Source of the DNA: Escherichia coli
GTDB taxonomy: Bacteria > Pseudomonadota > Gammaproteobacteria > Enterobacterales > Enterobacteriaceae
Length of the DNA: 64,000 nucleotides
Assembly (NCBI RefSeq): GCF_003018255.1
Contig: NZ_CP027440.1
Direction: 5' to 3' (one strand)
Numbering within the stretch: position 1 is the first letter of the stretch; the number at the start of each line of letters is the position of its first letter. A model generated the notes under the pieces. The model had not been told where the DNA came from. It searched no databases and saw only the letters and a program-made list of their open reading frames with translations. Below are positions 40,624-46,835 of the stretch, in pieces. The translations under genes were made by a program, and so were the position numbers.

Positions 40624-40973
40624 TAACTCCTTTCGAGTACGCAGTCGCTGCCGCAGTGACTGCGTGCTGCAAAATTATCTGCTATTCTTAACCTTTTCTT
40701 AAAGATTATTTCACTTCTCTTGTGCCGATTTGGCTTTATCACATAGAGCAAATACGCATAAAAATTTGTTAAATACCGTTTTTTAATCCGAGCTATAGTC
40801 TCAAACCCTGGCTAAAGTTATTCTTGCGATGCTTTTATATAGCGAGCAGTGCTGGCCGGGAGAGAGTTCTCTTTTCTTACACCGCGCCGATAAAAAATAT
40901 GCACGTTTATTGCATATCTTTCAGTGTGACAACTTTTGTTCGTTTGTTAACGAACTTTCAGAAGGAAAGAGAT

Positions 40974-43323: not shown

Positions 43324-44277
43324 ATGAGTACACTTGAACCTGCTGCCCAGCCCAAACCGCCGGGCGGATTTAAGCTGTGGTTGTCGCAGCTGCAAATGAA
43401 GCATGGGCGCAAACTGGTCATTGCGTTGCCGTATATCTGGTTGATCCTGCTGTTTCTGCTGCCATTTCTGATCGTCTTTAAAATAAGTCTGGCGGAGATG
43501 GCGCGCGCCATTCCGCCTTATACCGAACTGATGGAGTGGGCTGACGGGCAACTGTCCATCACTCTTAATCTCGGTAATTTTCTGCAACTGACTGACGATC
43601 CGCTCTATTTCGATGCTTATCTCCAGTCGCTACAGGTGGCTGCGATTTCGACATTTTGCTGTTTACTGATCGGCTATCCGCTGGCGTGGGCGGTGGCGCA
43701 CAGTAAGCCTTCGACCCGTAATATCTTATTACTACTGGTGATCCTGCCGTCGTGGACCTCGTTTCTGATCCGCGTTTATGCCTGGATGGGAATATTAAAA
43801 AACAACGGTGTGCTGAATAATTTTCTGCTGTGGCTGGGGGTTATCGATCAACCGTTGACCATTCTGCATACCAACCTGGCGGTTTATATCGGCATTGTTT
43901 ACGCCTATGTGCCGTTTATGGTGCTGCCGATCTACACCGCCTTGATTCGTATTGATTATTCGCTGGTGGAAGCGGCACTGGATCTCGGTGCACGACCGCT
44001 GAAAACGTTCTTTACTGTGATCGTGCCGCTGACCAAAGGCGGGATTATTGCCGGATCGATGCTGGTGTTTATCCCGGCTGTGGGCGAGTTTGTGATCCCT
44101 GAACTGCTCGGTGGCCCGGACAGCATCATGATCGGGCGCGTGCTGTGGCAGGAGTTTTTCAATAACCGCGACTGGCCGGTGGCCTCGGCGGTAGCGATCA
44201 TCATGTTGCTGCTGCTAATTGTGCCGATAATGTGGTTTCACAAACACCAGCAAAAAAGCGTGGGAGAACACGGATGA
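43324..44277 (+). CDS. potH: Putrescine ABC transporter permease
   Basis: 317-aa hydrophobic ORF. Confidence 0.9.
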   Translation: MSTLEPAAQPKPPGGFKLWLSQLQMKHGRKLVIALPYIWLILLFLLPFLIVFKISLAEMARAIPPYTELMEWADGQLSITLNLGNFLQLTDDPLYFDAYLQSLQVAAISTFCCLLIGYPLAWAVAHSKPSTRNILLLLVILPSWTSFLIRVYAWMGILKNNGVLNNFLLWLGVIDQPLTILHTNLAVYIGIVYAYVPFMVLPIYTALIRIDYSLVEAALDLGARPLKTFFTVIVPLTKGGIIAGSMLVFIPAVGEFVIPELLGGPDSIMIGRVLWQEFFNNRDWPVASAVAIIMLLLLIVPIMWFHKHQQKSVGEHG

Positions 44278-45119
44278 ATAATTTACCGGTTGTTCGTTCG
44301 CCCTGGCGGATTGTGATTTTGCTGCTGGGCTTCACCTTTCTCTACGCGCCAATGCTGATGCTGGTGATCTATTCATTCAACAGCTCGAAACTGGTGACGG
44401 TGTGGGCCGGCTGGTCAACACGCTGGTATGGTGAGTTATTGCGCGATAACGCGATGATGAGTGCGGTTGGTTTAAGCCTGACAATTGCGGCCTGTGCGGC
44501 GACGGCGGCGGCGATCCTCGGGACGATTGCGGCGGTCGTGCTGGTGCGCTTTGGTAGGTTTCGCGGATCAAATGGTTTTGCCTTTATGATCACCGCGCCG
44601 CTGGTGATGCCAGATGTCATCACGGGCTTGTCGCTATTGTTGTTATTCGTCGCGCTTGCTCATGCTATTGGCTGGCCTGCGGACCGCGGTATGCTCACCA
44701 TCTGGCTGGCGCATGTCACTTTCTGTACGGCTTATGTGGCAGTCGTTATTTCGTCGCGTCTGCGGGAACTGGATCGCTCGATAGAAGAAGCCGCGATGGA
44801 TCTCGGTGCGACGCCGCTGAAAGTGTTTTTTGTCATTACGCTACCGATGATCATGCCCGCGATCATTTCTGGCTGGTTACTGGCTTTTACTTTGTCGCTT
44901 GATGATCTGGTGATCGCCAGCTTTGTTTCCGGGCCGGGAGCCACCACTTTACCGATGCTGGTCTTTTCCAGCGTGCGGATGGGGGTGAATCCGGAAATCA
45001 ACGCCCTGGCAACATTGATCCTCGGCGCGGTCGGAATTGTCGGATTTATCGCCTGGTATCTGATGGCGCGCGCAGAAAAACAGCGGATACGCGACATCCA
45101 GCGTGCAAGACGTGGCTGA
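44274..45119 (+). CDS. potI: Putrescine ABC transporter permease
   Basis: ATG overlapping the potH stop (ATGA); MNNLPVVRSPWRIVILLLGF; 281 aa. Confidence 0.9.
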   Translation: MNNLPVVRSPWRIVILLLGFTFLYAPMLMLVIYSFNSSKLVTVWAGWSTRWYGELLRDNAMMSAVGLSLTIAACAATAAAILGTIAAVVLVRFGRFRGSNGFAFMITAPLVMPDVITGLSLLLLFVALAHAIGWPADRGMLTIWLAHVTFCTAYVAVVISSRLRELDRSIEEAAMDLGATPLKVFFVITLPMIMPAIISGWLLAFTLSLDDLVIASFVSGPGATTLPMLVFSSVRMGVNPEINALATLILGAVGIVGFIAWYLMARAEKQRIRDIQRARRG

Positions 45120-45150
45120 AGACACTAAAATTTGCCAACCTGGCTACATA

Positions 45151-45178
45151 ATGCCGCGCATGTCGCGGCATTGTTTTC
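45151..45178 (+). terminator. Rho-independent terminator after potI, ending directly at the ybjO start codon
   Basis: Stem ATGCCGCG / CGCGGCAT with 5-nt loop, then TGTTTTC, then ATG of ybjO at 45179. Confidence 0.7.
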
Positions 45179-45667
45179 ATGGAAGACGAAACGTTGGGAT
45201 TTTTTAAGAAAACATCTTCATCTCATGCTCGCCTGAATGTGCCTGCGCTGGTGCAGGTGGCGGCGCTCGCCATTATTATGATCCGTGGCCTCGACGTGCT
45301 GATGATTTTCAATACGCTGGGCGTGCGCGGTATTGGCGAGTTCATTCATCGCAGCGTACAAACCTGGAGTTTAACGCTGGTCTTTTTGAGCAGTCTGGTG
45401 CTGGTTTTCATTGAGATCTGGTGTGCGTTTTCACTGGTGAAAGGGCGTCGCTGGGCGCGCTGGCTGTATCTGTTGACACAAATCACGGCCGCAAGTTACT
45501 TGTGGGCAGCTTCGCTGGGGTATGGTTATCCGGAGCTGTTCAGCATTCCCGGTGAATCAAAACGTGAAATCTTCCATAGCCTGATGCTGCAGAAGCTGCC
45601 GGATATGCTCATCCTGATGCTGCTGTTCGTTCCCTCGACCAGTCGGCGGTTCTTCCAGTTGCAATAA
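45179..45667 (+). CDS. ybjO: Inner membrane protein
   Basis: 162-aa ORF with hydrophobic segments. Confidence 0.8.
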   Translation: MEDETLGFFKKTSSSHARLNVPALVQVAALAIIMIRGLDVLMIFNTLGVRGIGEFIHRSVQTWSLTLVFLSSLVLVFIEIWCAFSLVKGRRWARWLYLLTQITAASYLWAASLGYGYPELFSIPGESKREIFHSLMLQKLPDMLILMLLFVPSTSRRFFQLQ

Positions 45668-45707
45668 TGTGTATAATCGTCGCCCCTGATGATGTGAAGG
45701 TCAATGT

Positions 45708-46835
45708 ATGCAGTGCGCACTTTACGACGCGGGTCGCTGTCGTTCCTGTCAGTGGATAACGCAGCCGATTCCAGAGCAACTCTCCGCTAAAACCGCCGAT
45801 CTTAAAAATCTGCTCGCCGACTTTCCGGTTGAGGAATGGTGCGCGCCGGTGTCAGGCCCGGAACAAGGGTTTCGTAATAAAGCCAAAATGGTGGTGAGTG
45901 GTAGCGTTGAAAAACCACTGCTCGGTATGCTGCATCGCGACGGCACGCCGGAAGACCTTTGTGACTGTCCGCTTTATCCTGCCTCATTTGCGCCCGTTTT
46001 TGCGGCGCTAAAACCGTTTATCGCCCGAGCGGGGTTAACGCCCTACAACGTGGCGCGTAAGCGTGGCGAACTGAAATACATTCTGCTGACTGAAAGCCAG
46101 AGCGATGGCGGCATGATGCTGCGCTTTGTACTGCGTTCTGATACCAAGCTGGCGCAACTGCGTAAGGCGCTGCCGTGGTTACAGGAACAACTACCGCAGC
46201 TGAAAGTTATTACCGTCAATATTCAGCCGGTACATATGGCGATTATGGAAGGGGAGACGGAGATTTACCTGACTGAACAACAGGCGCTGGCAGAGCGTTT
46301 TAATGACGTACCGCTGTGGATCCGTCCGCAAAGTTTCTTCCAGACTAATCCGGCGGTCGCCAGCCAGTTGTACGCCACCGCGCGCGACTGGGTACGACAG
46401 CTGCCGGTTAAACATATGTGGGATCTGTTCTGCGGTGTGGGGGGCTTTGGTTTACACTGCGCGATGCCTGACATGCAGTTAACCGGGATCGAAATTGCGC
46501 CAGAGGCCATTGCCTGTGCAAAGCAGTCAGCCGCTGAACTGGGCTTAACGCGTTTGCAATTTCAGGCGCTGGACTCCACTCAGTTTGCCACTGCTCAGGG
46601 GGAGGTGCCGGAGCTGGTGCTGGTTAACCCGCCGCGCCGCGGCATTGGTAAACCGCTGTGTGATTATCTCTCAACGATGGCACCGCGTTTTATTATCTAC
46701 TCCAGCTGTAACGCCCAAACCATGGCGAAAGATATCCGCGAACTGCCAGGTTACTGCATCGAACGGGTACAGCTTTTTGATATGTTCCCGCACACTGCGC
46801 ATTACGAAGTGCTGACACTGCTGGTTAAGCAATAA
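45708..46835 (+). CDS. rlmC: 23S rRNA (uracil747-C5)-methyltransferase
   Basis: 375-aa ORF; N-terminal Fe-S Cys cluster ([14 protein letters not shown]); SAM-dependent MTase domain. Confidence 0.9.

Follow-up and report, generated by a model that had tools for sequence, protein, structure and literature searches.

The closest described counterpart of the junction considered here is the one between the frd operon and ampC of Escherichia coli, where the ampC promoter lies within the last frd gene and the frd terminator serves as the ampC attenuator (Grundstrom and Jaurin, 1982; Jaurin et al., 1981; both via PMC6045580). A related arrangement is known from Burkholderia pseudomallei, in which a promoter arising immediately upstream of the nlpD1 terminator leads to readthrough and constitutive expression (PMC6045580). 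This readthrough sets a precedent for promoter-proximal transcripts that cross such a hairpin.

We examined the potI-ybjO junction in a 64,000-nt stretch of the E. coli chromosome (the window; contig NZ_CP027440.1), whose positions 44900-45500 were matched in 5,417 of 5,426 complete E. coli genomes at at least 95% identity. The annotated genes of this region are potF, potG, potH, potI, ybjO, and rlmC, with artJ on the opposite strand. Coordinates are those of the window, and all features described lie on its plus strand. MG1655 v3 (NC_000913.3) coordinates equal the window position plus 852,810, as derived from ybjO (897989..898477). U00096.2 coordinates equal the window position plus 852,033, as derived from an entry of tetracycline-inhibited ribosome profiling (TetRP) at 897227, whose shift of 15 places the annotated ATG at 897212. 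This second conversion was cross-checked, in that 897227 corresponds to 45194 and the rlmC transcription start site (TSS) also fits. The comparative set consisted of 80 species-representative loci, all from Enterobacteriaceae, which were anchored on the invariant HA..NVP..VQVAA motif; codon counts were taken from 76 of them.

Both the RefSeq annotation of the identical strain and the list of open reading frames give potI, which closes the potFGHI operon, at 44274..45119, with TGA 45117-45119 as its stop codon. ybjO is annotated as a 162-amino-acid frame beginning at ATG 45179-45181, and RefSeq makes the same call in the matching strain and in MG1655. A preliminary description of this DNA had pointed out that a hairpin and T-tract directly abut this ATG, which we confirmed (hairpin, 45150-45172; T-tract, 45173-45178; ATG, from 45179). 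It had proposed that any ybjO ribosome-binding site would be sequestered in the hairpin, and that expression may depend on readthrough, an internal promoter within potI, or a leaderless mechanism, or else that the annotated start may be wrong.

The start codon and ribosome-binding site of ybjO

Conservation, published initiation profiling, and the annotation of orthologues all place the ybjO start at TTG 45194..45196. The codon at this position is TTG in 68 and GTG in 8 of the 76 Enterobacteriaceae species loci, and other leucine codons never occur there, while each of 12 other conserved leucine positions in the ybjO genes is encoded in three to six ways, mostly by CTG. Restriction to TTG and GTG where other leucine positions vary is the signature of a start codon. 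By contrast, the position of the annotated ATG holds ATG in only 27 of the 76 loci, and CAG, AGG, ACG, CAT, TCA, or TGG in the remaining 49. The ATG is kept throughout Escherichia, and in these 27 loci, which include all of Escherichia, it is in frame with the TTG with no intervening stop codon. Among close relatives, single-base indels between the T-tract and the TTG break the frame, and in-frame stop codons occur between the ATG position and the TTG in five species. Trabulsiella, Raoultella terrigena, and Silvania confinis carry such a stop two codons 5' of the TTG or GTG, which leaves the codon matching 45194 as the only possible start in those species.

TetRP in E. coli lists the ybjO start as TTG at +15 nt and classes it as a "new site" (Nakahigashi, 2016; PMC4909307, Table S2 row 88). 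Read counts in the three samples were 129, 60, and 17 at the TTG compared to zero in each at the annotated ATG, and the lacZ fusions with which the ybjO TTG was tested were too weak to interpret (PMC4909307). The RefSeq annotation of ybjO still does not carry the TetRP start change. Many orthologues, including that of Salmonella, are annotated as 157-amino-acid proteins that begin at the codon matching 45194. Moreover, the shorter form retains all of the Pfam YbjO domain, which spans residues 21-160 in the numbering of the 162-amino-acid form. Thus, we conclude that the annotated ATG is very probably a mis-annotation and that ybjO starts at the TTG 15 bases later, which gives a revised reading frame of 45194..45667 (157 amino acids plus stop). 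The RefSeq and K-12 versions of ybjO are therefore very probably five codons too long, in conflict with the annotation of Salmonella and other orthologues and with the published profiling. One exceptional locus was noted in the comparative set. Leclercia adecarboxylata NCTC13032 (locus L072, approximately 2493-2540) has an apparent 1-nt insertion in the first ybjO codons relative to other Leclercia, which puts the TTG out of frame with the HARLNVP motif and which is either a sequencing error or a mark of a pseudogene.

The TTG is preceded by a weak Shine-Dalgarno (SD) sequence, GGAAG (45181..45185), which overlaps the annotated ATG such that the G of that ATG is the first SD base. Across 65 distinct sequences, the invariant columns 3' of the hairpin are one T of the T-tract, the G, G, and A at 45181, 45182, and 45184, and the second and third bases (TG) of the start codon. 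The first base of GGAA or GGGA lies 12-14 nt 5' of the start in all 60 distinct species sequences compared, and in E. coli GGAAG ends 8 nt before the TTG. Predicted pairing with the anti-SD sequence amounts to -3.3 kcal/mol for GGAAG versus -1.7 kcal/mol for the sequence upstream of the ATG. This overlap also explains why an N-terminal "ME(D/G)" looks conserved wherever the ATG exists. The very low activity of the ybjO reporters in PMC4909307 is in keeping with a weak SD combined with a TTG start.

The distance from the end of the hairpin to the start codon is held at 19-23 nt in the 60 distinct sequences. The hairpin thus ends at about the 5' edge of a 30S footprint, and the real ribosome-binding site is left unmasked. 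Two other arrangements of the leader were considered and set aside. A long-range interaction between codons 6-11 and the T-tract plus SD appears in the predicted fold of the E. coli sequence alone and is gone in the consensus fold of 73 sequences. Likewise, an upstream reading frame running through the hairpin from ATG 45151 or 45160 has no SD, and its start is missing in the Citrobacter freundii group and Klebsiella.

These results bear directly on the preliminary description. Its suspicion that the annotated start may be wrong was strongly supported, with TetRP reads at the +15 TTG and none at the ATG, and with TTG or GTG plus GGAAG conserved where the ATG is not. It had named a mapped downstream in-frame start with its own SD as evidence against a buried ribosome-binding site, and TTG 45194 with GGAAG is such a start. 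The claim of sequestration holds for the mis-annotated ATG only; the real site lies just 3' of the hairpin. The apparent paradox of a buried ribosome-binding site dissolves because the start codon was mis-annotated.

The promoter and transcription start of ybjO

A Cappable-seq TSS (Ettwiller et al., 2016; PMC4782308) maps to 45138 (U00096.2 position 897171; score 19.7; log2 enrichment 4.5), which is 41 nt 5' of the annotated ATG and gives a 56-nt leader to the TTG. It lies exactly 7 nt 3' of a -10 hexamer, TAAAAT (45126..45131), found six bases past the potI stop codon. All 65 distinct sequences keep the TAnnAT pattern of a -10 element; positions 1, 2, 5, and 6 never vary, and the variants seen are TATTAT, TACTAT, TAGAAT, and TAATAT. 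In Kosakonia the potI stop codon falls inside the hexamer.

Farther upstream, synonymous sites are frozen in a block of the last potI codons (45093..45110; GAT ATC CAG CGT GCA AGA). Among 73 distinct sequences, CGT, GCA, and ATC were each found in 73, GAT in 72, and the rare codon AGA in 70, and the remaining position is CAR. Arginine, alanine, and isoleucine codons further 5' in potI vary freely. The near absence of synonymous variation in this block suggests an overlapping DNA signal at the place expected for a -35 element, for which GTGCAA (45103..45108) is the candidate, at 17 bp from the -10 hexamer and with a 3/6 match to TTGACA. A consensus promoter scan of the window did not call the ybjO promoter, which departs from the strict rules of the scan. 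On the basis of the published mapping and this conservation, we conclude that ybjO has its own sigma-70-type promoter located 5' of the hairpin. A second hexamer, CATAAT (45147-45152) in the 5' flank of the hairpin, was rejected as a -10 element; it has no Cappable-seq TSS at the expected spot and is not conserved.

Several further observations were made on promoters and 5' ends in and around this junction. In Klebsiella spallanzanii (locus L048, 2243-2445), an element of about 190 bp lies between the potI stop codon and the ybjO -10 hexamer; the -10 hexamer, hairpin, SD, and TTG are intact, and the putative -35 element in potI is displaced. The insert, which looks ERIC-like, matches a dispersed, unannotated intergenic repeat with a median of 8 copies in each E. 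coli genome. Two weak plus-strand Cappable-seq 5' ends, at 897208 (45175; score 2.7) and 897298 (45265; score 1.55), may be noise. The former lies 4 nt 5' of the annotated ATG, within the T-tract, and no recognizable -10 hexamer precedes it. Downstream of ybjO, the 40-nt spacer before rlmC (45668-45708) appears to hold a separate promoter for that gene, in which a perfect TATAAT (45672-45677) is followed after 7 nt by a TSS at 45684 (897717; score 6.0; log2 enrichment 6.6) with a 24-nt leader to ATG 45708. At the other end of the region, a TSS at 40831 (892864; score 27.1; log2 enrichment 8.7) lies 143 nt 5' of the potF ATG (40974). The potF promoter has been described as the strongest RpoN-holoenzyme site and an NtrC target (PMC8743547), and the TSS at 40831 presumably belongs to this top-ranked RpoN site.

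The hairpin between potI and ybjO

Fold energy and covariation both support a conserved hairpin at 45150..45172, beginning 31 nt past the potI stop codon. Its stem core, ATGCCGCG (45151-45158), pairs with CGCGGCAT (45164-45171), and an additional pair extends it to AATGCCGCG (45150-45158) and CGCGGCATT (45164-45172) around the loop CATGT (45159-45163). The resulting 9-bp stem contains six G-C pairs and folds at -13.3 kcal/mol, or at -15.7 kcal/mol if two more pairs reach into the T-tract, and the 96-nt potI-ybjO spacer is more stable than its own shuffles (z = -2.6). Hairpin energies ranged from -11 to -22 kcal/mol over 60 distinct species sequences. Compensatory changes were found at all nine stem pairs in 65 distinct sequences from other species, and the stem has been replaced by wholly different ones in the Citrobacter freundii group, Klebsiella, Pluralibacter, Pseudocitrobacter, and Raoultella. 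Bases were paired in 94.7% of the cells in the stem columns, compared to 25-61% in slid controls, and none of 500 shuffles reached the observed values. In a consensus fold of 73 sequences, the hairpin is the sole conserved structure between the TSS and codon 22.

The hairpin is followed by a short T-tract, GTTTTC (45173..45178), directly 5' of the annotated ATG. It has four consecutive T residues in E. coli and, with a single exception, the 60 distinct species sequences have a run of three to five T residues there. A consensus terminator scan of the window did not call this hairpin, whose tract fails the rule of at least five T residues in eight, probably because pairing of the stem can continue into the T-tract and leaves too few T residues after it. 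The features of the hairpin and T-tract suggest a short-tailed terminator that is probably leaky, and termination of potFGHI transcripts would be the best reading of its role. Since the ybjO promoter lies 5' of the hairpin, the hairpin is also an element of the ybjO mRNA leader, and every ybjO transcript must cross it.

Two proposals of the preliminary description can be judged from this arrangement. That of an internal promoter within potI was nearly right, in that the last potI codons contain the putative -35 region, with the -10 hexamer six nt past the potI stop and the mapped TSS at 45138. Dependence of ybjO on readthrough is retained in a changed form, namely that transcripts from a promoter 5' of the hairpin all pass through it.

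Searches of published data and sequence families for this hairpin gave negative results. The supplements of the Term-seq study of Adams 2021, of TERMITe, and of SMRT-Cappable-seq contained no 3' end matching potI, ybjO, or these coordinates, and a literature search for a described potFGHI terminator returned nothing relevant. No Rfam family matched above threshold; asX2 gave a sub-threshold chance match of 20.9 bits compared to a gathering score of 70. A REP-like repeat was also rejected as the nature of the hairpin, which had only one match in the window at three or fewer mismatches.

Probable overlap of transcription units at potI-ybjO and its relation to frd/ampC

We consider it probable that the potI-ybjO junction is a compact overlap of two transcription units combined with an ATG artefact, in which ybjO has a TTG start and its own promoter and the hairpin is shared between the units. 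The annotated ATG would be an artefact of choosing the longest reading frame, and translation would begin at TTG 45194, driven by the weak SD GGAAG just 3' of the hairpin and T-tract. ybjO, and rlmC via ybjO, would be transcribed from the sigma-70-type promoter with its -35 element in the end of potI, its -10 hexamer at 45126-45131, and its start at A45138, such that the hairpin forms part of the 56-nt ybjO leader. In the other unit, the hairpin and T-tract would end the nitrogen-regulated potFGHI transcript and thereby insulate ybjO-rlmC, which is plausible given that potF is an NtrC target with the top-ranked RpoN site. The same leaky hairpin may partly attenuate or shape transcription from the ybjO promoter, in the way that ampC is attenuated at the frd terminator. 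The start and promoter steps of this scheme are based on published mapping and conservation, and those of termination, insulation, and attenuation are suggested by sequence and conservation.

The start-codon part of this scheme has two competitors. If the annotated ATG were real, its ribosome-binding site would be buried in the terminator hairpin and ybjO would be expressed by readthrough or by leaderless or other unusual initiation. This account draws on the direct contact of the T-tract with the ATG, the 3' arm of the hairpin over the place where an SD is expected, the weak Cappable-seq signal at 45175 (score 2.7), and the conservation of the ATG within Escherichia. It must be reconciled with the lack of the ATG in 49 of 76 loci, the indels and in-frame stops before the TTG, the zero TetRP counts at the ATG in three samples, and the absence of a -10 hexamer before 45175; the "ME(D/G)" conservation is accounted for by the overlapping SD. 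It is already largely refuted, and we regard it as scarcely tenable. Its leaderless variant in particular is not supported, as the main TSS is 41 nt 5' of the ATG, only the weak signal occurs at -4, and no TetRP signal appears at the ATG. A milder version, that Escherichia and some relatives use the TTG as the main start and the ATG for a minor 162-amino-acid isoform, is compatible with the uninterrupted frame from ATG to TTG in 27 of 76 loci, among them all of Escherichia. However, no SD lies 5' of the ATG (-1.7 kcal/mol), a hairpin of -13 kcal/mol ends 6 nt before it, TetRP counts there are zero, and positions 4-5 of the extra codons vary non-conservatively (codon 4 being E, D, I, F, or N). 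We think dual starts improbable.

The role of the hairpin can likewise be read in other ways. It might be no terminator, but a stem-loop of the ybjO 5' leader that protects against 5'-end-dependent decay or sets the boundary of the ribosome-binding site, with the T-tract as a U-rich translational enhancer and potFGHI transcription running on into ybjO-rlmC. The run of only three to five T residues, the failure of the consensus scan to call a terminator, the fixed hairpin-to-start distance of 19-23 nt, and the lack of a 3' end at the hairpin in the Term-seq tables searched are all consistent with this possibility, as is the Enterobacter-type hairpin, which begins about 2-3 nt after the predicted start in the geometry of protective 5' stem-loops. 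In the E. coli type, however, 12 unpaired nt precede the hairpin, a poor fit to 5'-end protection, and a covarying GC-rich stem with a T-run after the last gene of an operon is the standard signature of an intrinsic terminator. Moreover, the 3'-end tables may have gaps, and expression of potFGHI is low in rich medium. We estimate a purely leader-borne role to be unlikely, though worth keeping in view. The ybjO promoter and terminator might instead define a functional small RNA of about 40 nt (45138 to about 45178), since a mapped TSS, a hairpin 12 nt later, and a U-tail have the formal layout of one. But conservation is lacking in the 12 single-stranded nucleotides at its 5' end, which are deleted in the Enterobacter type (an 11-nt gap), no Rfam family matches above threshold, and no such RNA appears in the 3'-end tables searched, which makes this explanation very improbable.

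A stronger version of the shared-hairpin reading is that the hairpin is a regulated attenuator common to both units, which would stop NtrC/sigma-54-driven potFGHI transcription and tune the flow from the ybjO promoter into ybjO and rlmC. By analogy with ampC, such tuning could respond to growth rate, or to polyamine or nitrogen status. We hold this version to be doubtful. If it is true, the attenuator would link expression of rlmC, which encodes a 23S rRNA methyltransferase and hence ribosome modification, to the adjacent putrescine importer.

The start change and the TSS were each already present in published data sets; what is new here is their combination with comparative evidence and the ampC-like reading. 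The outcome of our preferred reading, two overlapping units with a shared hairpin, is ordinary biology plus an annotation correction, and general principles are unchanged. It has a consequence for operon and terminator annotation, in which such hairpins are scored as plain "terminators" and the downstream gene is wrongly assumed to be promoterless. With respect to start codons, ybjO resembles other genes re-annotated from TetRP in being listed with a new TTG start (PMC4909307). Its reporter test failed and RefSeq is unchanged, and the comparative evidence given here adds the missing support.

The arrangement as a whole was compared with the frdD-ampC junction of MG1655, which as we read it runs TACAAT, TAA, the GGCCCGCC/GGCGGGCC hairpin, GTTTTGTATGGAAACC, and the ATG about 15 nt later. 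At potI-ybjO the order is TGA, TAAAAT, the AATGCCGCG/CGCGGCATT hairpin, GTTTTCATGGAAGAC, and the TTG. Both junctions have the -10 hexamer of the downstream gene at the stop codon that closes the upstream operon, a leader carrying a GC-rich hairpin with a short T-tract, and a weak GGAA-type SD before a start about 15 nt past the T-tract, and their dimensions are nearly equal. The sequences that follow the two hairpins are also alike (GTTTTGTATGGAAACC of the ampC attenuator compared to GTTTTCATGGAAGAC after potI; locus L083, 245-320, minus strand), each containing an ATG that runs into a GGAA-type SD some 15 nt 5' of the real start, and this likeness is probably convergence or coincidence. The junctions differ in that only the putative -35 element lies inside the upstream gene at potI-ybjO and the start codon is TTG. 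They also differ in that attenuation of ampC and its dependence on growth rate were shown experimentally, whereas any attenuation of ybjO is putative.

The nlpD1 terminator and penA attenuator of B. pseudomallei are similar to this junction in that the downstream leader contains the upstream gene's terminator. There, however, the promoter arose by mutation in resistant isolates, whereas that of ybjO is ancestral and conserved in the Enterobacteriaceae genera sampled. In having a promoter at the end of the last gene of the upstream operon, 5' of what is best read as its terminator, the potI-ybjO junction belongs with frd/ampC, and it would be a second clear E. coli example of this layout, conserved across the family.
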